This document shows, piece by piece, positions 830 to 25,025 of a stretch of DNA of 31,751 nt. This DNA is from a virus (taxonomy: Duplodnaviria > Heunggongvirae > Uroviricota > Caudoviricetes). Position 1 is the stretch's first letter, and every line of letters starts with the position of its first letter. Location of the stretch: the IMG/VR virus record IMGVR_UViG_2802429221_000013; one strand, written 5' to 3'. The notes beneath the pieces were generated by a model. The model was not told the DNA's origin. It did not search any database and saw only the letters and a list, made by a program, of their open reading frames with translations. A program made the position numbers and the translations under genes.

Positions 830-1825
830 TTATGGACGCATTATGGACATTCCTGACACCGGGTTAAGAGTCACAGCATCTTGTAAGAAATCCGGTGCAA
901 AGTGTGCGTAGGTCATAGTTTGCTGAATGTTAGAATGACCCAGGATGCGCTGCAATGTGATTATGTTACCTCCATTCATTATAAAATGTGTGGCAAATGT
1001 ATGCCTCAAAACATGCACTGCCTGTCCGTCAGGTAAATCGGGTTTTACTTCCCTGAGAGCGTTGCGCACTTTGTAGTAACTGGCATTAAAAAGCCTGCCA
1101 GAATTTTTGGTTTTGATCCGTTTAATCAAGTCCTGCGAAACGGGAATTGTCCTGCGCTTTCCGTTTTTGGTTTTCATAAACGTAACCATTTGGTTAATGA
1201 TGTGTTCAGCTTTTAAATTAGACACTTCACTCCAGCGTCCACCAGTAGAAAGGCAGACCAGAGTCGCATTTAATTCATCACCATCAAGCATGGATAGCAG
1301 CCGCGTAATCTCTTCACTGGACAAAAAAGCCATTTCCGTAACAGCTTCACGTAACCGCTTCACCTCACGGAACGGGTTGTGAGAGTGATATTCACCGGCG
1401 TCAATTAACTTGGTGAACATCCCGCTCATTATTGCCAGATGCCGATTTACGCTGGCTGGTTTTAGACCGTCGTTCATCATTACAACGCGATAATCAGTTA
1501 TCGTTTTCTTTGTTAGCTGGTCCGCCCTGGACACTCCCATCTCAGCAAATTTGGCAATTATTGTCGTCAAACGCCCCCGTTCAATATCTCCACGCTCATG
1601 TGATTTTCCGTGATATATCCACCATCTGCCTAACAACTCTGTAAGAGTTCGGCGGTCGGCCGGCTTCTCCAACCACTCTTTGTTGTGGTAGTTAACCAGG
1701 ACATGACGCTCGAATGCCTGGGCTTCACCTTTAGTTTTAAATTTCCGCCTGATACGTTTTCCATCTGCACCCTGCGGCCTGACGTCCACTTCATAACGAC
1801 CATCATCGAGCTTTTTAATAGACAT
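830..1825 (-). CDS. int: Phage integrase, tyrosine recombinase (P2 Int-like)
   Basis: 331-aa ORF with a C-terminal tyrosine-recombinase catalytic region (HVLRHTFATH, LGHSNIQQTMTYAH). Sits at the prophage edge next to C/cox as in P2. Stop codon is only 31 bp from the pflA ORF start. Confidence 0.9.
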   Translation of the reverse strand: MSIKKLDDGRYEVDVRPQGADGKRIRRKFKTKGEAQAFERHVLVNYHNKEWLEKPADRRTLTELLGRWWIYHGKSHERGDIERGRLTTIIAKFAEMGVSRADQLTKKTITDYRVVMMNDGLKPASVNRHLAIMSGMFTKLIDAGEYHSHNPFREVKRLREAVTEMAFLSSEEITRLLSMLDGDELNATLVCLSTGGRWSEVSNLKAEHIINQMVTFMKTKNGKRRTIPVSQDLIKRIKTKNSGRLFNASYYKVRNALREVKPDLPDGQAVHVLRHTFATHFIMNGGNIITLQRILGHSNIQQTMTYAHFAPDFLQDAVTLNPVSGMSIMRP

Positions 1826-2687: not shown

Positions 2688-3152
2688 ATGAGGCAAGATT
2701 TAAATAAAACATCGGTGACTATCATCAGAGGAAACCTTGAAGATGCATCACCATCTAACAGCCTGACTATTACGTATAGTGAGTTTGCTAATAGTACGAA
2801 AGAATATAAATCAGCCGATGAATTGAGAAAACAAAATATCATTTTGGATAATGATGAACTTGTTTTTATTAGTTCAGATGGTGATGAAGAAATTCTACGG
2901 CTGAATTTGAAATCTTTATTTCATGACTCTTTTTTGCGCATTAAATATGAATGCGTTGGTATGACCGTTCAAGAGCGCATGGAACTCGCTAAGGCTCTTC
3001 GTGAAACGATAATTTCTAAATCAGGCGATATAAATAGTATTAAATGGTCAATAGGGCTTGATGACTGGAAAAGTATTTTTGACATGATGACGCATCCGTA
3101 TAAACAGCATACGGATGCAAGATGCTATTTTAAAAATGATTTATATCAATAA
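2688..3152 (+). CDS. Hypothetical protein, AT-rich cargo ORF in the early operon
   Basis: 154-aa ORF with a strong ribosome-binding site (AAGGAGG, 4-5 nt before the ATG), starting 10 bp after the cox stop. AT-rich compared with flanking phage genes. No motif I recognise. Confidence 0.6.
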   Translation: MRQDLNKTSVTIIRGNLEDASPSNSLTITYSEFANSTKEYKSADELRKQNIILDNDELVFISSDGDEEILRLNLKSLFHDSFLRIKYECVGMTVQERMELAKALRETIISKSGDINSIKWSIGLDDWKSIFDMMTHPYKQHTDARCYFKNDLYQ

Positions 3153-3424: not shown

Positions 3425-3595
3425 ATGCAGGAACCTCGTTGTATTGCTCAGTTATTGCGTAACGAAAGCCCTAGGGCGATTGACTTCACCATCACCCACG
3501 GGAAAGGACGCAAGGGAATCATTATCCGCACCAAAAAACAGAGTTCGTTAAAGAAGGCTCTGACCTTTCTGAAAAGCCGGAGGGTCTGGAAATGA
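3425..3595 (+). CDS. Small early protein, hypothetical
   Basis: The internal ATG at 3425 is preceded by AGGAGG, giving 56 aa. Basic protein. Its stop overlaps the B start (ATGA). Confidence 0.5.
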   Translation: MQEPRCIAQLLRNESPRAIDFTITHGKGRKGIIIRTKKQSSLKKALTFLKSRRVWK

Positions 3596-4092
3596 CAGTG
3601 ATGACGCTTAATCTCGTTGAAAAACAGCCAGCAGCTATGCGCCGGATAATTGGTAAGCATCTGGCCGTCCCTCGCTGGCAGGATACATGTGATTATTATA
3701 ATCAGATGATGGAACGCGAACGGCTAACGGTTTGCTTTCATGCGCAGTTAAAACAGCGTCACGCAACGATGCGTTTTGAAGAAATGAACGACGTCGAACG
3801 TGAACGGCTGGTTTGTGCAATTGATGAATTGCGCGGGGCATTCTCAAAACGCCGTCAGGTTGGCGCAAGTGAGTATGCATATATTAGTTTTTTAACAGTC
3901 AGTCAGCGTCGCACTTTATTTATGCACGCACGGCTGACAGAAAAAGAATTTAACCAGCCATACTGGCGAATTAATGAAGAGTCATGTTACTGGCGTGATG
4001 CTTTATTCCGTGCATTACGTGAATTATTCAGTCTGTTTGAGTATGCACCGACAATTCTGACGTCGGTAAAACCAGAGCAATATCTGCATTAA
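3592..4092 (+). CDS. B: Replication protein B (helicase-loader-like, P2 gpB)
   Basis: 166 aa, the same length as P2 gpB, in the same position between cox and A. Confidence 0.8.
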   Translation: MTVMTLNLVEKQPAAMRRIIGKHLAVPRWQDTCDYYNQMMERERLTVCFHAQLKQRHATMRFEEMNDVERERLVCAIDELRGAFSKRRQVGASEYAYISFLTVSQRRTLFMHARLTEKEFNQPYWRINEESCYWRDALFRALRELFSLFEYAPTILTSVKPEQYLH

Positions 4093-5139: not shown

Positions 5140-5411
5140 GTATTCGTATTGAAATTGGCGAACGTTATGTCGTTACCAGTGACAGCTTTCAGTTTATTCT
5201 CCACGAGAAAAAGAGAGCGGAAAGCGGTAAAAACGCCGGTCAGGAATGGCTGGCGGTGGTTGGTTATTACCCGAAATTAAGCCAGCTCGTTTCCGGCCTG
5301 ATGCATCACGATATTCTGACCGGAAGCGCAAAGTCTTTTGCCGATTTAAACGCGCAGGTTGAGCAACTCAGCAGGCGTTGTTCAGAGGCTTTTGGCTCAT
5401 ATGGCCGTTAA
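5136..5411 (+). CDS. Hypothetical early protein
   Basis: 91-aa ORF translationally coupled to its neighbours; its 3' end overlaps the A start. Confidence 0.5.
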   Translation: MSIRIEIGERYVVTSDSFQFILHEKKRAESGKNAGQEWLAVVGYYPKLSQLVSGLMHHDILTGSAKSFADLNAQVEQLSRRCSEAFGSYGR

Positions 5412-7674
5412 AGCCTCCGGGCGTTTTGTCCCTCCGTCAGCATTTGCTGCAGGCACCGGTAAGGCGTTTACCGGTGCTTATGCATGGAACGCGCCACGCG
5501 AGGCTGTCGGGCGCGAAAGACCCCTTACACGTGACGAGATGCGTCAGGTGCAAGGTGTTTTATCCACGATTAACCGTCTGCCTTACTTTTTGCGCTCGCT
5601 GTTTACTTCACGTTATGACTACATCCGGCGCAATAAAAGCCCGGTGCACGGGTTTTATTTCCTCACATCCACTTTTCAGCGTCGTTTATGGCCGCGCATT
5701 GAGCGCGTGAATCAGCGCCATGAAATGAACACCGACGCGTCGTTGCTGTTTCTGGCAGAGCGTGACCATTATGCGCGCCTGCCTGGAATGAATGACAAGG
5801 AGCTGAAAAAGTTTGCCGCCCGTATCTCATCGCAGCTTTTCATGATGTATGAGGAACTCAGCGATGCCTGGGTGGATGCGCATGGCGAAAAAGAATCGCT
5901 GTTTACGGATGAGGCGCAGGCTCACCTGTATGGTCATGTTGCTGGCGCTGCACGTGCTTTCAATATTTCCCCGCTCTACTGGAAAAAATACCGTAAAGGA
6001 CAGATGACCACGAGGCAGGCATATTCTGCCATTGCCCGCCTGTTTAACGATGAGTGGTGGACTCATCAGCTTAAAGGCCAGCGTATGCGCTGGCATGAGG
6101 CGTTACTGATTGCTGTAGGGGAGGTCAATAAAGACCGTTCTCCTTATGCCAGTAAACACGCCATTCGTGATGTGCGTGCACGCCGCCAGGCAAATCTGGA
6201 ATTTCTTAAATCGTGTGACCTCGAAAACAGGGAAACCGGCGAGCGCATCGACCTTATCAGTAAGGTGATGGGCAGTATTTCTAATCCTGAAATTCGTCGG
6301 ATGGAGTTGATGAACACCATTGCCGGTATTGAGCGTTACGCCGCCGCAGAGGGCGATGTGGGGATGTTTATCACGCTGACCGCGCCGTCAAAGTATCACC
6401 CGACACGTCAGGTCGGAAAAGGCGAAAGTAAAACCGTCCAGCTAAATCACGGCTGGAACGATGAGGCATTTAATCCAAAGGATGCGCAGCGTTATCTCTG
6501 CCATATCTGGAGCCTGATGCGCACGGCATTCAAAGATAATGATTTACAGGTCTACGGTTTGCGTGTCGTCGAGCCACACCACGACGGAACGCCGCACTGG
6601 CATATGATGCTTTTTTGTCATCCACGCCAGCGTAACCAGATTATCGAAATCATGCGTCGCTATGCGCTCAAAGAGGATGGCGACGAAAGAGGAGCCGCGC
6701 GAAACCGTTTTCAGGCAAAACACCTTAACCGGGGCGGTGCTGCGGGATATATCGCGAAATACATTTCAAAAAACATCGACGGCTATGCACTGGATGGTCA
6801 GCTCGATAACGATACCGGCAGGCCGCTGAAAGACACTGCCGCGGCTGTTACCGCATGGGCGTCAACGTGGCGTATTCCGCAATTTAAAACTGTTGGCCTG
6901 CCGACAATGGGGGCTTACCGTGAACTACGCAAATTACCTCGCGGCGTCAGCATTGCTGATGAGTTTGACGAACGCGTCGAGGCTGCACGCGCTGCCGCAG
7001 ACAGTGGCGATTTTGCGCTGTATATCAGCGCGCAGGGTGGGGCAAATGTCCCGCGCGATTGTCAGACTGTCAGGGTCGCCCGTAGTCCGTCGGATGACGT
7101 TAACGAGTACGAGGAAGAAGTCGAGAGAGTGGTCGGCATTTACGCGCCGCATCTCGGCGCGCGTCATATTCATATCACCAGAACCACGGACTGGCGCATT
7201 GTGCCGAAAGTTCCTGTCGTTGAGCCTTTGACTTTAAAAAGCGGCATCGCCGCGCCTCGGAGTCCTGTCAATAACTGTGGAAAGCTCAACGGTGGTGATA
7301 CTTCGTTACCGGCTCCCACACCTTCTGAGCACGCCGCAGCAGTGCTAAATCTGGTTGATGACGGTGTTATCGAATGGAATGACCCGGAGGTCGTGAGGGC
7401 GCTCAGGGGCGCATTAAAACACGGTCTGAAAACACCAAATCGTCAGCAAAGAAACGGAAGTCCGTTAAAAACACATGAAATTGCATCGTCGGCCAGACTG
7501 ACCCGGTCGGAACGAATGCAAATCACCCGTATCCGCGTTGACCTTGCTCAGAACGGTATCAGGCCTCAGCGATGGGAGCTTGAGGCGCTGGCGCGTGGGG
7601 CTGCGGTGATTTACGGTAACAAAAAGTTCATTTATGCGACCGATAAGGGATGGCCAGGGTTTTCTGAGGGGTAA
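5401..7674 (+). CDS. A: Replication initiation endonuclease A (rolling-circle initiator, P2 gpA)
   Basis: From the ATG at 5401 the product is 757 aa (P2 gpA is about 761) and begins MAVKASGRFVPPSAFAAGTGK as I recall P2 gpA does. Contains the rolling-circle initiator HxH motif (PHWHMMLF) and a candidate catalytic tyrosine region (YIAKYISK). Confidence 0.9.
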   Translation: MAVKASGRFVPPSAFAAGTGKAFTGAYAWNAPREAVGRERPLTRDEMRQVQGVLSTINRLPYFLRSLFTSRYDYIRRNKSPVHGFYFLTSTFQRRLWPRIERVNQRHEMNTDASLLFLAERDHYARLPGMNDKELKKFAARISSQLFMMYEELSDAWVDAHGEKESLFTDEAQAHLYGHVAGAARAFNISPLYWKKYRKGQMTTRQAYSAIARLFNDEWWTHQLKGQRMRWHEALLIAVGEVNKDRSPYASKHAIRDVRARRQANLEFLKSCDLENRETGERIDLISKVMGSISNPEIRRMELMNTIAGIERYAAAEGDVGMFITLTAPSKYHPTRQVGKGESKTVQLNHGWNDEAFNPKDAQRYLCHIWSLMRTAFKDNDLQVYGLRVVEPHHDGTPHWHMMLFCHPRQRNQIIEIMRRYALKEDGDERGAARNRFQAKHLNRGGAAGYIAKYISKNIDGYALDGQLDNDTGRPLKDTAAAVTAWASTWRIPQFKTVGLPTMGAYRELRKLPRGVSIADEFDERVEAARAAADSGDFALYISAQGGANVPRDCQTVRVARSPSDDVNEYEEEVERVVGIYAPHLGARHIHITRTTDWRIVPKVPVVEPLTLKSGIAAPRSPVNNCGKLNGGDTSLPAPTPSEHAAAVLNLVDDGVIEWNDPEVVRALRGALKHGLKTPNRQQRNGSPLKTHEIASSARLTRSERMQITRIRVDLAQNGIRPQRWELEALARGAAVIYGNKKFIYATDKGWPGFSEG

Positions 7675-7722
7675 CCGGTTTTATTGCTAAATATTAAACA
7701 GCAAATCATGTCAAGATAAGAG

Positions 7723-7751
7723 TTGTGTTTATTTGATTTCGGAAATAATAT
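7723..7751 (+). promoter_or_regulatory. Candidate sigma70 promoter for the cargo operon (-35 TTGTGT, 17-bp spacer, -10 TAATAT)
   Basis: TTGTGT at 7723-7728 and TAATAT at 7746-7751 with a 17-bp spacer, in the AT-rich gap between the A stop and the 300-aa ORF start at 7792. Confidence 0.4.
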
Positions 7752-7791
7752 CATCAGTAATATCATCTAGATAATAATTGGGTATGAATGA

Positions 7792-8694
7792 ATGCGTGAG
7801 GCTGTTTCAATCGCTTGGTGGAATACGGGGATATCTCCTGCGGTTAAAAGAGAACGTTCTACTCCTGAAGAGTTGAAAGTAGCATTTGCTTTTATAGCAA
7901 ATATTTTGGTGAGTCATAATGTTGATATCCTATGTCTTGGAGAAATATCACCATCAGATATTAAGGTTTTAGAGGAAATGTTCTCAGAGGAAGGATTCAT
8001 AATATATGATGGGACTTTCACTGAAGGAAGCATAAAACATGATATGTGCATTCTTATAAAGCTAGCTACTTTCACTTACATTGATAGTAAAAGCATTGTT
8101 GAACAGTCACTGTTAGGAGCGGTAAGAGCCGGGCAAGAAGTTCAGCTCATGCATAATAACAGTGGGGATCATTTTTTTTTCTACATATCGCATTGGCCTA
8201 TGAGAGGTAATGATTCTAATGAAGAAATGCCAAAACGATATGAATTAGGAAAAGCTTTGCGAGGAGCAATCAGTAGATGTATAGAGGAAAAGTCAGGAAA
8301 GTATTTTATTCTTTTAGGTGATTACAATGACGATCCCTTTAATAAATCTCTTACACATGCTTTAGGTGCAACAAGGGATAGAGACTTAGTTGTCAAAAAA
8401 GATACTTTTTTATACAACCCTTTTTGGAATTTCATGGGGGCTTCAATTAGTTTTCCATCAGAAGATCATCATTTGAGTACCTACGGGACATATTATTACA
8501 GGGGCGGTGCTGTAACCCGTTGGCATACATTTGATCAAATTATTTTCTCCTCTTCATTCATTTCTGGTGGAGATTGGAATCTTTTGGAGGATGAGGTTAA
8601 AATCATTAACGATAAAGCCTTTAAAGAATTGGTGACAAGTCCCAAAACTAACTTTGATCATTTACCTGTTATCGCTGTAATTACGAGAGGTTAA
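7792..8694 (+). CDS. EEP-superfamily (endonuclease/exonuclease/phosphatase) protein; candidate defence effector
   Basis: 300-aa ORF, AT-rich. Motifs matching EEP catalytic signatures: WWN (N11), DILCLGE (E51), LLGDYNDDP (D177, N179), WHTFDQIIFS (D248), NFDHLPV (D289, H290). Sits in the A-to-cos slot where P2 has tin/old. Confidence 0.65.
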   Translation: MREAVSIAWWNTGISPAVKRERSTPEELKVAFAFIANILVSHNVDILCLGEISPSDIKVLEEMFSEEGFIIYDGTFTEGSIKHDMCILIKLATFTYIDSKSIVEQSLLGAVRAGQEVQLMHNNSGDHFFFYISHWPMRGNDSNEEMPKRYELGKALRGAISRCIEEKSGKYFILLGDYNDDPFNKSLTHALGATRDRDLVVKKDTFLYNPFWNFMGASISFPSEDHHLSTYGTYYYRGGAVTRWHTFDQIIFSSSFISGGDWNLLEDEVKIINDKAFKELVTSPKTNFDHLPVIAVITRG

Positions 8695-8698
8695 CAAA

Positions 8699-9151
8699 AT
8701 GGATTTCAAAAATTCATTAGCTGTGGGGATAGAGGCAGCAAAAAAAGCAAGATCAAATAAAGAAGAAATATTTAGTATTATCAGTGATTTAAGTGATAGT
8801 ATAAAGGAGTATAGTCAAGGGCGAGTGTTTTTGAAAATTACGAGTGAAAAAAAACTTGCATCTAATCAGACAGCGCTTACTGCCGTTGTGAGTTCGTTTA
8901 CAAACATCAACCCTTACATCGATTACGAAGCTCTATCGTTCGTAACTAAGAGAGAGCAAACAGAAGTTAAAGAGAACATTGCTGTTTGGAAGATAAATGA
9001 ATCAGATGGTTATCCATGTGTGATTTCTTATAACAAACGGGATGTTAGGTGCAAAGATAAAGAAACGTTAATCAAAGCGTTAAATGATCTAATGTCTGAT
9101 GCTAGCACCGGAGAAATTCTTTTAAGACTTATGAATACAGAGGAAGCATAA
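8699..9151 (+). CDS. Hypothetical protein, partner of the EEP protein
   Basis: 150-aa ORF starting 5 bp after the EEP stop, same AT-rich composition. No motif I recognise. Confidence 0.55.
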   Translation: MDFKNSLAVGIEAAKKARSNKEEIFSIISDLSDSIKEYSQGRVFLKITSEKKLASNQTALTAVVSSFTNINPYIDYEALSFVTKREQTEVKENIAVWKINESDGYPCVISYNKRDVRCKDKETLIKALNDLMSDASTGEILLRLMNTEEA

Positions 9152-9353
9152 TGATTTGTGAGGAGGACATTTTTTGAGTTGTTAGTGTATGCTTATAATT
9201 TACTTTGGCAGTTTTTTAACGTATCGACATAATCCTCTTCCTTGCATGAAAATGCATGCGTTTTGGACATCGTGATTGTTTGGGCGTTGCTAGCTTTTGT
9301 TCAGTCTGAGAGAGCTCATGCACCTGCATCAAAATCGCCCCATGAAGCGCGCA

Positions 9354-9372
9354 GGCGAGGCGGGGAAAGCAC
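9354..9372. other. cos cohesive-end site (19 nt, GGCGAGGCGGGGAAAGCAC)
   Basis: Matches the P2 19-nt cohesive-end sequence as I recall it, at the expected map position just beyond the Q gene, between Q and the cargo slot. Confidence 0.7.
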
Positions 9373-9512
9373 TGCGCGCTGGCGGTGGTGCTGATTTTAT
9401 TTTTTCAGCGTCTGAGCGCGTCGTGATGGCGTTTAGATTGTGTGCCGGGGCGTTGGTTTGTCTGCGGGCTGTTTTGCGTGGAGGTGAGCGTGTGAGGGCG
9501 TGATGACGGGGT

Positions 9513-9536
9513 GTAAAAAAGCCGCCCGCAGGCGGC
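9513..9536 (-). terminator. Rho-independent terminator downstream of Q (minus strand)
   Basis: On the minus strand: GCCGCC-TGCG-GGCGGC hairpin followed by TTTTTT, immediately 3' of the Q stop. Confidence 0.6.
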
Positions 9537-9541
9537 GATGT

Positions 9542-10576
9542 TCAGCCGTTGTCAGTGTCCAGTGAGTAGTTTTTAAAGCGGATGACCTCCTGACCGAGCC
9601 AGTCGTTTATTTCCCGAATCCTGTCCTGTAACGGGATAAGCTCATTGCGGACAAAGACCTTTGCCACTTTCTCAATATCACCCAGCGATCCGACGTTCTC
9701 CGGCTTGCCGCCCATCAACTGAAAGGGGATACGGTGCGCGTCCAGCAGGTCAGCGGCGCTGGCTTTTTTGATATTAAAAAAATCGTCCTTCGTTGCCACT
9801 TCACTGAGCGGGATAATTTTAATGCCGTCAGCTTTCCCCTGCGGGGCATAGAGAAACAGGTTTTTAAAGTTGTTGCGGCCTTTCGACTTCACCATGTTTT
9901 CGCGAAGCATTTCGATATCGTTGCGATCCTGCACGGCATCGGTGACGTACATGATGTATCCGGCATGTGCGCCGTTTTCGTAATACTTGCGGCGGAACAG
10001 CGTGGCCGACTCATTCAGCCAGGCAGAGTTAAGGGCGCTGAGATATTCCGGCAGACCGTACAGCTCCTGATTAATATCCGGCTCCAGCAGGTGAAACACG
10101 GAGCCGGGTGCGAAGGCTGTCGGCTCGTTGAAGGACGGCACCCACCAGTAAATATCCTCTTCCACACCACGGCGGGTATATTTTGCCGGTGAGGTTTCCA
10201 GCCTGATAACTTTACCGGTGGTGCTGTAACGCTTTTCCAGAAACGCATTACCGAACACCAGAAAATCCAGCACAAAGCGGTTGAAATCCTGCTGGGAAAG
10301 CCACGGATGCGGGATAAATGTCGAGGCCAGAATATTGCGTTTGACGTAAATCGGTGAGCTGTGATGCACGGCAGCACGCAGGCTTTTTGCCAGACCGGTA
10401 AAGCTGACCGGTGGCTCATACCATCTGCCGTTACTGATGCATTCGACGTAATCCAGAATGTCACGGCGGTCGAGTACCGGCACCGGCTCGCCAAAGGTGA
10501 ATGCCTCCATTTTCGGGGCGCTGGCGGTCATTGTTTTTGCCGCAGGTTGCGGTGTTTTCCCTTTTTTCTTGCTCAT
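9542..10576 (-). CDS. Q: Portal protein (P2 gpQ)
   Basis: 344 aa, the P2 gpQ length; N-terminus MSKKKGKTPQPAAKTMTAS and overall sequence match my recollection of P2 gpQ. Leftward orientation next to cos as in P2. Confidence 0.9.
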   Translation of the reverse strand: MSKKKGKTPQPAAKTMTASAPKMEAFTFGEPVPVLDRRDILDYVECISNGRWYEPPVSFTGLAKSLRAAVHHSSPIYVKRNILASTFIPHPWLSQQDFNRFVLDFLVFGNAFLEKRYSTTGKVIRLETSPAKYTRRGVEEDIYWWVPSFNEPTAFAPGSVFHLLEPDINQELYGLPEYLSALNSAWLNESATLFRRKYYENGAHAGYIMYVTDAVQDRNDIEMLRENMVKSKGRNNFKNLFLYAPQGKADGIKIIPLSEVATKDDFFNIKKASAADLLDAHRIPFQLMGGKPENVGSLGDIEKVAKVFVRNELIPLQDRIREINDWLGQEVIRFKNYSLDTDNG

Positions 10577-12348
10577 CAGTAAAACTCCAGAATGGTGGAT
10601 GTCAGCGGGGTGCTGATACCGGCGGTGAGTGGCTCATTTAACAGGGCGTGCATGGTCGCCCAGGCGAGGTCGGCGTGGCTGGCTTCCTCGCTGCGGCTGG
10701 CCTCATAGGTGGCGCTGCGTCCGCTGCTGGTCATGGTCTTGCGGATAGCCATAAACGAGCTGGTGATGTCAGTGGCGCTGACGTCATATTCCAGACAGCC
10801 ACGGCGGATAACGTCTTTTGCCTTGAGCACCATTGCGGTTTTCATTTCCGGCGTGTAGCGGATGTCGCGCGCGGCGGGATAGAACGAGCGCACGAGCTGG
10901 AACACGCCGACACCGAGGCCGGTGGCATCAATACCGATGTATTCGACGTTGTATTTCTCGGTGAGTTTGCGGATGGATTCCGCCTGGGTGGCAAAGTCCA
11001 TGCCTTTCCACTGATGGCGCTCAAGTATCCTGAATTTGCCACCGGCCACCACCGGCGGTGCCAGCACCACGCATCCGGCACTGTCGCCACGGTGTGACGG
11101 GTCGTAACCAATCCATACCGGGCGGGAGCCGAACGGATTCGCGGCAAACGGCGCATAGTCTTCCCATTCTTCCAGCGTGTCGACCATGCAGCGTTGCAGC
11201 TCCTCGAACGGGAACACCGACGCCTTGTCGTCAACAAATTCACACATGAACAGGTTTTTAAAATCGTCGGCGCTGTTTTCGCGTTTAAGCTGCTCAATGT
11301 CGAACAGCGTGCAGCCACCTTTCAGGGCGTCCTCAATGGTGACAATCTGCCGCCACTGGCCGTCCGCACAGAGAAGCCCACCGGCAAGGGCGTTATGACT
11401 GACGTCGATTTCCACGCGTTCAGCGGCGCTGGCGCGTCCCCGGTTAAACAGTTCCCCCGACCAGAACGGGTAGGCGTCGTGCGCCAGCGTGGATGGGGTG
11501 GAGAAATAGGTCGAGCGCAGGTGACTCTGTGAGGCCATACCGGATGCCACCTTACGCAGCACCTGAAAATTCGGGATCCAGAAAATCTCGTCGACGTACA
11601 GGTCGCCGTTATGGCTCTGTGCGGTGTTGGAGTTGGTGCCGAGAAAAATCAGTTTTGCGCCGTTATTGCCCAGGACAATCGGGTCACCGGTCAGGTCAAC
11701 GTCAACCAGACGGGCAAAGGCGATGATGTATTCACGGAACACATACGCCTGCGTTTTACTGGCCGACAGAAAAATCTGGTTATGACCGGTTTTCAGGGCA
11801 CGCAGCAGCGCCTCGCGGGAAAAATAAAACGTTGCGCCAATCTGGCGGGATTTCAGGATATCGCGGATGCGGTGCTCAAGCCCGGCGCGATACCAGTGCA
11901 ACTGATAGTCGAAAGACTGCTCAAAGAAAATCTGTTCCAGCTTTTCGATGGCCTCGTCACTGAAAAAATTCTTTTTCGGTTTGCGCCGTCCGCCTTTGTT
12001 GCGGTTAGCGACGTTCGGATTAAGGTCTGCCTCGTTGCCGGTCTGACTGTAACGGTTTACCCGTGCCAGTCGTTCAATCTGGCGTCCCAGCAGGTCAATT
12101 TCCTTGAAGTCACCGCCGGTTTTCTGCGGTTTGATGATGAGCTGGGTCAGCCGCGCTTCCAGACTCATTTCGACACGGCTGATGGGGGCAACGCTGTCCC
12201 AGCCGTCGCGCTGTTTCCAGCTCTGCACCGTCGGGCGTTTCATCTGCAACATGGCGGCAATCTGCGGCACGGAAAACCCCTGCCAGTACAGCAGCGCCGC
12301 CTGACGACGCGGGTCGTGTAAAAGAGTGGTGTCTGTGGTGATGGTCAT
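10576..12348 (-). CDS. P: Terminase large subunit / ATPase (P2 gpP)
   Basis: From the ATG at 12348 (minus strand) the product is 590 aa starting MTITTDTTLLHDPRRQ, as P2 gpP. Overlaps the Q start by 1 nt. Confidence 0.9.
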   Translation of the reverse strand: MTITTDTTLLHDPRRQAALLYWQGFSVPQIAAMLQMKRPTVQSWKQRDGWDSVAPISRVEMSLEARLTQLIIKPQKTGGDFKEIDLLGRQIERLARVNRYSQTGNEADLNPNVANRNKGGRRKPKKNFFSDEAIEKLEQIFFEQSFDYQLHWYRAGLEHRIRDILKSRQIGATFYFSREALLRALKTGHNQIFLSASKTQAYVFREYIIAFARLVDVDLTGDPIVLGNNGAKLIFLGTNSNTAQSHNGDLYVDEIFWIPNFQVLRKVASGMASQSHLRSTYFSTPSTLAHDAYPFWSGELFNRGRASAAERVEIDVSHNALAGGLLCADGQWRQIVTIEDALKGGCTLFDIEQLKRENSADDFKNLFMCEFVDDKASVFPFEELQRCMVDTLEEWEDYAPFAANPFGSRPVWIGYDPSHRGDSAGCVVLAPPVVAGGKFRILERHQWKGMDFATQAESIRKLTEKYNVEYIGIDATGLGVGVFQLVRSFYPAARDIRYTPEMKTAMVLKAKDVIRRGCLEYDVSATDITSSFMAIRKTMTSSGRSATYEASRSEEASHADLAWATMHALLNEPLTAGISTPLTSTILEFY

Positions 12349-23038: not shown

Positions 23039-23616
23039 TGGCTTTCAGAATGAGTGCAGAAGCACAAACTATCCGCGTTTTCAATTTACTTAATGGAACC
23101 AATGAGTTTATTGGCGAAAGTGATGCATATATTCCGCCGTATACTGGCCTGCCTGCAAACAGTACAGATATTGCACCACCTGATATTCCTGCTGGTTATG
23201 CAGCCGTTTTCAATGCAGATGAAATGAAATGGGAACTGATGGAAGACCATCGCGGAAAGACTGTCTACGAAACGAAAACGGGAGCAGCCATTTATATTTC
23301 TGAACTTGGCGCATTACCTCCAGACGTGACAGCCATTTCCCCGGATGGGGATTATCAGAAATGGAACGGAAATGCGTGGGTGAATGATGAGAATGCAGAG
23401 CGTGATGCGCTTGTCAGAGCGGCTGACTCTCAGAAGAAAGAGCTGATTGCATATGCAGGTGAAATTATTGCCACGCTGCAGGATGCTGTCGATTTAGATA
23501 TGGCTACCGAGGAAGAAAAGTTAAGCCTGACACACTGGAAAAAATACCGTGTGCTACTGAATCGCGTTCAGCCGGAAAATGCTCCAGATATAGAATGGCC
23601 AGAAATGCCGCAATAA
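23038..23616 (+). CDS. G: Tail fibre assembly chaperone (P2 gpG-like)
   Basis: 192-aa ORF immediately after H with ATGA-type overlap; P2 gpG is about 175 aa. Confidence 0.75.
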
Positions 23617-23872
23617 ATCGTATTAGATCTGGTGTGAGATTACTCATCTATGGCACAGAGTAAAAACTAATCTGACAGTCCGCTCTGTGCTAGGAGCGGA
23701 CATTACCAAGTAACATGCCTTAATCAAAAGGAAATGGTTAATATATGCCATCATTGTTTGAAAAATACGCAGTCATATATTGCTATGAACATTGTTGGTG
23801 CATTAATTTGCTTAAGAAACTACAATTAAGCATCATAAAACACTCTTATGACTTTTAAGGCTCTACCGTATC

Positions 23873-24280
23873 ATGGCTAAGCGGATTCCTGGTGTTAGTA
23901 AAGAATGGTCTAACTATCTCCTTTGTTTATTATTACATATGTCTTTACCTCTCTTACCTTTGGGGTTCGAGACACTTGTGCGTTCCGATCACTTGCCATC
24001 AATACAAACATTAAATATTACAGCGGCGTTTTATGCGATCTCGATAGGGCTTTCTTCTAAGAACGTTGCTATGTTTGGTTTGGGTATATTCGTGAGCATT
24101 TGTTTCTCTGTTGTATTTGGGATTGTTTCTTCAAATCCTAATTCTGATCCTAATCTTAATTTTAATGATAACTTGTATTTTTATTCTCCAATTGCGTGTA
24201 TTGTTGCTATATTTGTTATACATGCATGTGAACGATATAACAGGCATGTTGCTGATTGTACACCATTTTTTGAGTTTTAA
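23873..24280 (+). CDS. Small polytopic membrane protein, cargo in the G-to-FI slot
   Basis: 135-aa ORF, very AT-rich. Three or four hydrophobic segments (LLCLLLHMSLPLLPLGF, AAFYAISIGL, MFGLGIFVSICFSVVFGIVS, IACIVAIFVIHAC). Weak ribosome-binding site, so the start is uncertain. Confidence 0.5.
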   Translation: MAKRIPGVSKEWSNYLLCLLLHMSLPLLPLGFETLVRSDHLPSIQTLNITAAFYAISIGLSSKNVAMFGLGIFVSICFSVVFGIVSSNPNSDPNLNFNDNLYFYSPIACIVAIFVIHACERYNRHVADCTPFFEF

Positions 24281-24289
24281 GGGGGTGCT

Positions 24290-24781
24290 ATGATTGATAC
24301 AATTATCCCAGTAATACTATCAATTCTCCCGGCAATACTATCTATATTTAGCTTAGTAGCTGTTTTTATAGGTGCATTAGTATCTATCAGGTCTGTTAAA
24401 AAAAGACGTGAAATAGAAGTTCAGCTTTTTAATGAGATAATAAATCAACAAATTAAACAAACTAAAAGCAACCGTAAAAAGGATCTTGAAAATAGTGTTA
24501 ATGAAATAGAAAATGAACTCAAGAGAAGAGTTGATATTTTGAATAAAATGCAAAAAGATCTAGAAGCAGTTTCAGAGAACAAATACTATTTTGATAAAGC
24601 AAAATATCTTCGAAATGTCAAGTATGGAGAGTATTTATTAGAGATAAATGAAGCTGTGAATAATATTGATAATAAAAACAAACACTTACTAAATAACGCT
24701 CTTAATCAAAGCTCTGAGATTGGAAAAGTAAGATATCTTGGAAGAATAACAAAGGAAGCACTGGAAAAAACAGTAGGCTGA
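24290..24781 (+). CDS. Membrane-anchored coiled-coil protein, cargo in the G-to-FI slot
   Basis: 163-aa ORF with a GGGGG ribosome-binding site, 9 bp after the upstream ORF. N-terminal transmembrane helix (IIPVILSILPAILSIFSLVAVFIGALVSI) followed by a highly charged K/E/N-rich helical region. AT-rich. Confidence 0.6.
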   Translation: MIDTIIPVILSILPAILSIFSLVAVFIGALVSIRSVKKRREIEVQLFNEIINQQIKQTKSNRKKDLENSVNEIENELKRRVDILNKMQKDLEAVSENKYYFDKAKYLRNVKYGEYLLEINEAVNNIDNKNKHLLNNALNQSSEIGKVRYLGRITKEALEKTVG

Positions 24782-25025
24782 TCATTTTTTCCGCTCGTAA
24801 TAGATAAACTCAAAGGTTCTTTTTGAGAGCCTTTGAGTTTCAATCTTACCAATATTACTCACCATTTCTTTAGCAGCAATTTGGGGACTATAACTTCTAC
24901 TTCTTGCTGTGAGTTCAACCGATGGATACAACACATTGGCTAAAACGCCCTGTGGGTGATTCATAGTCTAGCGTTTGGACTCCGTAAATTCACAGTTGGA
25001 AACTGAGCGAGTACAAATCAAGGCC

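Follow-up and report, generated by a model that had tools for sequence, protein, structure and literature searches.

An endonuclease/exonuclease/phosphatase-fold enzyme and a small partner as a candidate two-gene defence cassette in the cos-proximal slot of a P2-like prophage

The stretch of DNA analysed here, called the window below, is the 31,751-nucleotide IMG/VR virus record IMGVR_UViG_2802429221_000013 (Caudoviricetes). The whole window is a P2-like prophage, with an integrase, a helix-turn-helix (HTH) repressor, cox, replication gene A, the portal gene Q and terminase, capsid and tail genes. Our subject is the interval between gene A and the portal gene, which holds exactly two open reading frames (ORFs), both on the plus strand. 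The first encodes an enzyme of the endonuclease/exonuclease/phosphatase (EEP) fold and the second a small partner protein. Compared across bacteria and their mobile elements, the two form an obligate unit that might serve in anti-phage defence. The locus contains the following features.

830-1825, minus strand: integrase.
5359-7674: replication gene A (Phage_GPA domain, E 3e-124).
7675-7791, plus strand: AT-rich spacer of 117 nt from the gene A stop to the start codon of the EEP gene, presumed regulatory, with weak promoter-like hexamers.
7792-8694, plus strand: EEP-fold enzyme of 300 aa, presumed effector, supported by its ORF and by hidden Markov models (HMMs).
8172-8180, plus strand: run of nine T inside the EEP gene (codons 127-130, DHFFFY), read from the sequence.
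8685-8698, plus strand: coupling region read from the sequence, with a GAGAGG Shine-Dalgarno motif in the end of the EEP gene, the TAA stop at 8692-8694 and a 4-nt spacer.
8699-9151, plus strand: partner of 150 aa, presumed regulator (inhibitor or sensor), supported by its ORF.
9354-9372, plus strand: P2-type cos 19-mer GGCGAGGCGGGGAAAGCAC, an exact match that forms the right edge of the cargo slot.
9542-10576, minus strand: portal gene Q.

Both reading frames lie where an earlier note, made from the sequence alone, had placed them, with a 4-nt spacer in between. The composition of the cassette is foreign, with a guanine-cytosine (GC) content of 35% against 55%, or over the whole cargo 35-36% against about 52-55% in the flanks. 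The 19-nt P2 cos sequence matches exactly at 9354-9372, so that the cargo interval ends at 9353, immediately before cos. Scans of the window for Rfam families and tRNAs gave no match. The cos-proximal region from gpA to gpQ is a defence hotspot of P2, where old and tin reside in P2 itself (Rousset et al. 2022, PMC9122126). The earlier description of an AT-rich two-gene cargo between A and cos, in a slot known for anti-phage cargo in P2-like phages, was thus accurate.

The best profile matches of the 300-aa protein are PF19580 (Exo_endo_phos_3; 61.1 bits for a gathering cut-off of 27) and PHROG 24714, and PF03372 is also matched at 33.6 bits (cut-off 24.5). Eight positions, N11, E51, H134, D177, N179, D248, D289 and H290, do not vary among 29 homologs with identities as low as 29%; they include all the catalytic signatures that had been read from the window (N11, E51, D177/N179, D248 and D289-H290). 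Further invariant aromatic residues are W9, W10, W135, W212 and W244, together with a GTYYY motif. The protein is predicted to adopt the four-layer alpha/beta-sandwich, with low confidence in a loop at residues 215-245, and profile HMM and structure-based searches both place it firmly inside the EEP fold. It has no signal-like N-terminal segment, the catalytic N11 being in the first strand, no membrane segment and no lipid-binding feature; its isoelectric point (pI) is 5.5. Judged from its sequence, gene 1 is predicted to encode a catalytically intact, cytoplasmic, metal-dependent phosphodiesterase of the EEP fold.

A fold search with the enzyme returned nSMase2, DNase1L3, EEPD1, nocturnin, TDP2, CNOT6L and PDE12 at 11-18% identity, of which none stands out; ExoIII and APE are also among the fold matches. 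None of the seven enzymes named first has a partner like that of the window. The substrates of these characterised enzymes are too diverse for any one to be assigned to the window enzyme. The equivalog models of the Xth/ExoIII group are missed widely, with 15.7 bits against a cut-off of 99.05 for TIGR00633 and 13.2 against 182.55 for TIGR00195.

The second gene encodes a small alpha/beta protein of an undescribed family. Its predicted fold comprises a long N-terminal helix, an antiparallel sheet with a GYPC hairpin and two C-terminal helices, and its Cys118 is invariant. It matches no Pfam family, CDtoxinA included, and shows no recognisable DNA-binding autoregulator domain. In agreement with the earlier note, which had recognised no motif in it, profile searches gave uncharacterised PHROGs alone, the best being 10179 and 24185; PF19580 and PHROG 24714, the best matches of the enzyme, are likewise uncharacterised. 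The partner family amounts to about 850 clusters at 50% identity, from Pseudomonadota, Planctomycetota, Myxococcota, Desulfobacterota and Deinococcota.

Fusion of the partner to other domains was considered and rejected, as an exhaustive profile search gave almost exclusively stand-alone proteins of 135-170 aa. The long variants carry low-complexity tails, apart from a single 563-aa form without Pfam match. This form is a Kofleriaceae homolog (L042, 1152-2843) with an extension of about 400 residues that has no repeat character and may represent an additional, fused domain.

The association of the two genes was assessed in loci that encode EEP relatives, 80 from genomes and 52 from viral contigs. 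With single-sequence phmmer searches, 50 of 57 genome loci showed a partner homolog immediately 3' of the EEP gene. When profiles of the two families were used, the EEP gene had a same-strand partner in 112 of the 119 loci where the EEP score is at least 100 bits, directly 3' in every case except one (L038). The seven unpaired loci consist of two contig ends and five Bacteroidota-type EEPs that belong to a different subfamily (342-366 aa, about 100-110 bits). The EEP stop and the partner start are only -26 to +11 nt apart in 109 pairs (modes -8, +1 and -4), which amounts to translational coupling in all of them; in the window, a GAGG Shine-Dalgarno motif lies 8 nt 5' of the partner ATG. The pairwise identities of the two proteins are correlated as well, with r = 0.86 overall and 0.75 at EEP identities below 50% (Mantel p <= 0.001, 94 pairs). 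Because their divergences correlate, the enzyme and its partner are inherited as a unit and are probably co-evolving.

From these comparisons, the pair is an obligate and ancient unit, and we consider this the main new result. The occurrence of the two genes together in several phyla and in different types of mobile element makes the reading as a two-gene system much stronger. The earlier note had proposed such a candidate system, EEP-based and without a name, for the P2 hotspot; this proposal is supported, and considerably strengthened, by the comparisons.

A conserved third gene was looked for and rejected: the large upstream ORFs are unrelated housekeeping genes (radical SAM, DinG, peptidase M3 and type II secretion system ATPase). 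In the Mitsuaria locus L038, a partner-like ORF (7497-7946, 67 bits) stands upstream of the EEP gene (7959-8954) and the downstream ORF of 145 aa fails the partner profile. This locus may represent a rearranged or divergent cassette.

Coupled adjacent genes, paired in 112 of 119 loci and diverging together with r = 0.86, are what is seen in type II toxin–antitoxin (TA) systems. The pair could be a plain TA or addiction module, with the EEP protein as toxin and the partner as antitoxin, that stabilises prophages and islands and gives no protection against phages. We find this unlikely as a full account, although the tight two-gene coupling, the co-divergence and the place of the pair beside other TA pairs (HicAB, RelE/MqsA) would all agree with it. 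So would the decay of the cassette. An intact partner beside a disrupted EEP gene recurs, in an Acinetobacter phage (L141), in locus L060 and in E. coli forms of 164 aa, and this toxin-like pattern is expected if the EEP enzyme is the harmful component. On the other hand, the partner lacks a recognisable DNA-binding autoregulator domain, the toxin-first order is the less common TA layout, and the short EEP forms may be homopolymer sequencing errors. Many TA systems of the P2 hotspot, moreover, proved to be defence systems, so that this explanation overlaps with a defensive role and does not exclude it.

The 164-aa products are found on 24 E. coli contigs and begin at M137, just 3' of the nine-T run. 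A second run of six T lies near 8407-8412, and it is there that a 227-aa form shifts frame. The short E. coli forms could result from recurrent inactivation or phase variation by frameshifting, or from homopolymer sequencing error.

The cassette is horizontally mobile and is carried by P2-like myoviruses, inoviruses, other prophages and small chromosomal islets. Its hosts include Enterobacterales, Pseudomonas, Burkholderiales, Methylococcales, Halomonas, Marinobacter, Rhizobiales and Geobacter, as well as Desulfobacterota, Myxococcota, Planctomycetota and Trueperaceae. The cargo DNA of the window itself occurs in one of 5,426 complete E. coli genomes, there in the A-to-portal slot; a close E. 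coli variant is present on 234 contigs, and the exact proteins were found in Escherichia marmotae and other Escherichia.

Comparison of the cargo at the A-to-Q slot across P2-like prophages revealed the same pair in at least 22 distinct loci besides the window. Copies in the A-to-portal slot come from E. coli, Serratia, Klebsiella and many IMG/VR P2-like contigs, with EEP identities of 33-95%. In a Serratia P2 slot the pair (57% identity) is directly followed by an OLD-family ATPase/TOPRIM gene, in a second Serratia strain HicAB lies upstream of it (39%), and a Klebsiella P2 slot holds it at 53% identity. At 33-40% identity, it is found in the slot or adjoining the P2-type portal gene of Pseudomonas-, Burkholderia- and Leclercia-type P2-like phages. 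Among 17 closely examined P2-like loci, the pair is the sole cargo in about half; the others also hold an AAA_15/AAA_21 ATPase, Dam methylases, HicB or DinI. On three IMG/VR P2-like contigs (L120-L122), the pair lies outside the A-to-cos slot, some 7.5 kb away from the portal gene in the direction of the capsid and late genes.

Beyond P2-like phages, a 9.7-kb Vibrio inovirus (L140, PQ189352, 1162-3082) encodes a small putative regulator, an EEP gene annotated 'DNase_I-like' and a 132-aa partner. In Marinobacter (L144, 7001-8330) the pair abuts a filamentous prophage encoding Zot, in an Acinetobacter temperate phage it follows the integrase, and in Pseudomonas it is located at a prophage end. 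Chromosomal islets are illustrated by Burkholderia multivorans, where the pair occupies an integrase-bearing islet with a HigA-like gene, and by Geobacter pickeringii (CP009788; L143, ~5678-10693), where an insertion sequence (IS) element, the pair, an nSTAND1 NTPase and a RelE/MqsA-like TA module are wedged in the nuo cluster.

Carriage by phages as different as P2-like phages, inoviruses and an Acinetobacter temperate phage might also indicate that the cassette benefits the phage, either as a counter-defence enzyme directed at host immune signalling nucleotides or as a nuclease for superinfection exclusion or host takeover. PHROG families include both proteins, and among the fold matches is the EEP relative PDE12, which degrades 2'-5' oligoadenylate. 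Yet many copies reside in chromosomal islets without phage genes nearby, such as the one by the IS element in the Geobacter nuo operon, and the P2-like copies are in the lysogenic-conversion slot and not in an early lytic operon. To our knowledge, an obligate small partner is atypical of the known anti-defence phosphodiesterases. We hold such a role to be very unlikely.

The expression signals of the cassette are less clear. The earlier note proposed a candidate sigma70 promoter at 7723-7751, which is not confirmed: by hand count this site (TTGTGT-17-TAATAT) reaches only 7/12 to the consensus and it is absent from the output of the consensus scan, which reported no sigma70 site of at least 9/12 in the spacer 7675-7791. 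The top relaxed matches in the spacer reach 8/12, for example TTGATT-17-AGTAAT at 7733-7761. As a spacer of 117 nt precedes the EEP gene, it is plausible that the cassette has its own promoter. The best sigma70-like match of the region, TTGGCA-17-CATAAT (10/12), lies at 9205-9233 on the plus strand, 3' of the partner gene; it points towards cos, and no ORF follows it. Either chance in AT-rich DNA or a remnant of former cargo may explain it.

Defence and TA genes recur beside the pair, among them OLD, AriA/GajA, LmuA, STAND, HicAB and RelE/MqsA, by raw, uncorrected counts. When the pair's two closest neighbours on either side were scanned in 81 loci outside P2-like phages, they included 10 integrases and three ATPases of the AriA/GajA class (AAA_15/AAA_21), and the same scan returned PifA, DitA, restriction–modification (RM) parts, MADS, SLATT and PDC candidates, along with many ordinary genes. 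In Pseudoduganella, the gene upstream of the pair matches the Lamassu LmuA model at 1e-138.

Some neighbours are instead linked to DNA damage, namely umuDC-type genes (Peptidase_S24 and IMS, three loci), SRAP (two to three loci) and DinI. With the fold matches to TDP2, ExoIII and APE and the DNA-binding-type tails of a subset of partners described below, they could speak for repair or damage-tolerance cargo, made of an EEP enzyme resembling apurinic/apyrimidinic endonucleases or TDP2 and an accessory factor. This seems very doubtful, given that the Xth/ExoIII equivalog models are missed so widely (15.7 bits against a cut-off of 99). Such repair genes are common prophage cargo and are absent where the pair is the sole cargo of the P2 slot, and a patchy, mobile and AT-rich distribution is atypical of repair genes.

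That the EEP pair is unnamed as a system is well supported. At E <= 1, neither protein matches any family of PADLOC-DB 2.0.0, including the PD systems of Vassallo (PD-T4, PD-T7 and PD-Lambda) and the PDC candidates, and the database names are 'endonuclease/exonuclease/phosphatase family protein' and 'hypothetical protein'. A full-text literature search on the accessions, PF19580, the PHROG identifier and EEP combined with defence islands or TA gave nothing relevant, and no EEP-based system appears in the main texts of the P2/P4 hotspot, DefensePredictor and metagenomic-selection papers or of the iLund4u preprint. The sole EEP domain that we found reported in defence is that of ARMADA II ArmC, which is predicted to be inactive. 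In the accessible part of the P2-hotspot table of Rousset et al., cdtABC is the only EEP entry (PMC9122126), and the available hotspot supplement tables, one of which is incomplete, contain no peptide fragment of either protein. The earlier note had not recognised the pair as a named defence system, and no name for it comes from PADLOC 2.0, Pfam, the PDB or the literature.

The second EEP gene of the P2 hotspot raises the question of a virulence toxin related to CdtB. CdtB shares with the window enzyme the EEP fold and the P2 prophage slot, but it is secreted, requires the lectin-like CdtA as well as CdtC and targets eukaryotic DNA. The window enzyme would be cytoplasmic, has another partner and is of a kind that occurs in free-living environmental bacteria. 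It has no signal peptide and bears N11 in the first strand, CdtA and CdtC genes are lacking, the partner has no CDtoxinA match, and members of the family are widely distributed among environmental Methylococcales, Geobacter, Planctomycetota and Myxococcota. A CdtB-like role is effectively refuted.

Other known systems resemble the pair in part. P2 Old and Tin have in common with it the position from A to cos or Q and the presumed exclusion role expressed from the prophage, while the proteins are unrelated: Old is an ABC-ATPase/TOPRIM nuclease, and the window proteins show no AAA_15, AAA_21, TOPRIM or Tin similarity. Modules of the HicAB, RnlAB and AbiE types are likewise mobile and compact, couple an enzyme with a small cognate protein and, for HicAB/RelE-type pairs, share slots with the window family. 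They differ in their folds, and in the window pair the enzyme comes first, is much larger and is not accompanied by an HTH antitoxin. ArmC of ARMADA type II also brings an EEP domain into a defence system, there as a predicted inactive accessory domain of a giant YprA helicase, whereas the window EEP enzyme stands alone with invariant catalytic residues.

On these associations, we propose an anti-phage defence module of the abortive infection (Abi) or TA type, in which an EEP effector under the control of its partner is carried as lysogenic-conversion cargo. This interpretation is reached through guilt by association, and we give it an even chance. As a self-contained, horizontally mobile cassette, the pair occupies the cos-proximal old/tin hotspot. 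The EEP enzyme would act as the effector, most likely by nicking or degrading DNA and less likely on RNA or nucleotides. The partner would bind it one-to-one, holding it inactive or targeting it, until a cue of infection releases it.

A clue to the substrate comes from the C-terminal tails of some partners. Ala/Lys/Pro tails of the AAKPAAKK type are present in at least eight loci or proteins (L023, L047, L108, L113, L115, L117, L135 and P0248) and resemble those of histone H1, AlgP and HupB, which are DNA-binding. These H1-like tails suggest that the complex acts on the nucleoid, with DNA as substrate. A pairing of an acidic inhibitor with a basic nuclease through charge complementarity was considered and rejected, both proteins being mildly acidic.

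Several observations weigh against a defence module acting on DNA. The clue from the tails is weak because other partners have acidic C-terminal tails (P0269, P0274, P0299, P0306, L015 and L028) and neither protein is basic, the median pI of the two being 6.0 and 5.2. The fold ranking is flat across nucleases, lipid phosphodiesterases and nucleotide phosphatases, and the sole sequence-profile match in the PDB, at 1.2e-4 over about 100 residues, is nocturnin, an NADP(H) 2'-phosphatase. Neither the consensus nor the relaxed scan of the 117-nt spacer found a convincing promoter. Many chromosomal neighbours of the pair are ordinary housekeeping genes, by raw, uncorrected counts. The hotspot itself holds more than defence, with partition systems in about a quarter and cytolethal distending toxin (CDT) in about 2% of the hotspots of P2-like phages, and of the untested hotspot systems cloned by Rousset et al., three of eight gave defence (PMC9122126).

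Part of this evidence would suit a defence effector with another substrate, either a small molecule such as NADP(H) or a 2'-/3'-phosphorylated or cyclic nucleotide, or a lipid head group, by analogy with nocturnin, PDE12, ANGEL2 and sphingomyelinase. To the nocturnin match and the flat ranking can be added the acidity of the enzyme (pI 5.5) and its invariant W9, W10, W135, W212, W244 and GTYYY motif, which would suit the stacking of a base or ring. This variant has in our view a small probability: the H1-like basic tails of some partners point to the nucleoid, the enzyme shows no membrane segment or lipid-binding feature, and the nocturnin match spans only about 100 residues, in a group of enzymes that all have the EEP core in common.

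Elsewhere in the window, the tail genes enclose a second AT-rich island (23500-25000, GC 32-39%), placed like the Z/fun-type hotspot of P2. Its full DNA is present in two of 5,426 complete E. coli genomes, and both of its genes are annotated as hypothetical proteins. These form a candidate for another unnamed two-gene cargo. Two more ORFs lie in the early region, in a lower-GC stretch between cox and A.

23873-24280 and 24290-24781, plus strand: two adjacent ORFs of 135 and 163 aa, without Pfam or PADLOC match.
2688-3152 and 3592-4092, plus strand: early-region ORFs of 154 and 166 aa, without Pfam or PADLOC match.

The EEP fold is that of DNase I, APE1, CCR4, nocturnin, PDE12 and the sphingomyelinases, and it has not so far been reported as an active effector in bacterial immunity. 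If the defence interpretation is true, the immune effectors of bacteria would gain an enzyme with an active EEP fold and, with it, a new family of small regulators. It is conceivable, with somewhat less than an even chance, that the pair is the founding member of a widespread defence family in which an active, stand-alone EEP effector is combined with a small regulator of new fold and spread by P2-like phages, inoviruses and islets. In a more unusual version, the substrate of the EEP enzyme would be, as for nocturnin or PDE12, a nucleotide cofactor or a signalling molecule and not DNA.

With two genes in 1.4 kb, carried by elements that range from P2-like myoviruses to 9.7-kb inoviruses, the cassette is easily tested. 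It would be a good case for understanding what holds a generic phosphodiesterase in check until infection sets it free. Should its role be non-defensive, it is still an uncharacterised and strictly conserved enzyme–partner pair that poses a clear biochemical question. More broadly, this cargo is present in a single one of 5,426 complete E. coli genomes and yet is part of a large, ancient family, which defence-annotation models such as those of PADLOC 2.0 miss; rarity of a cargo does not imply a small family.

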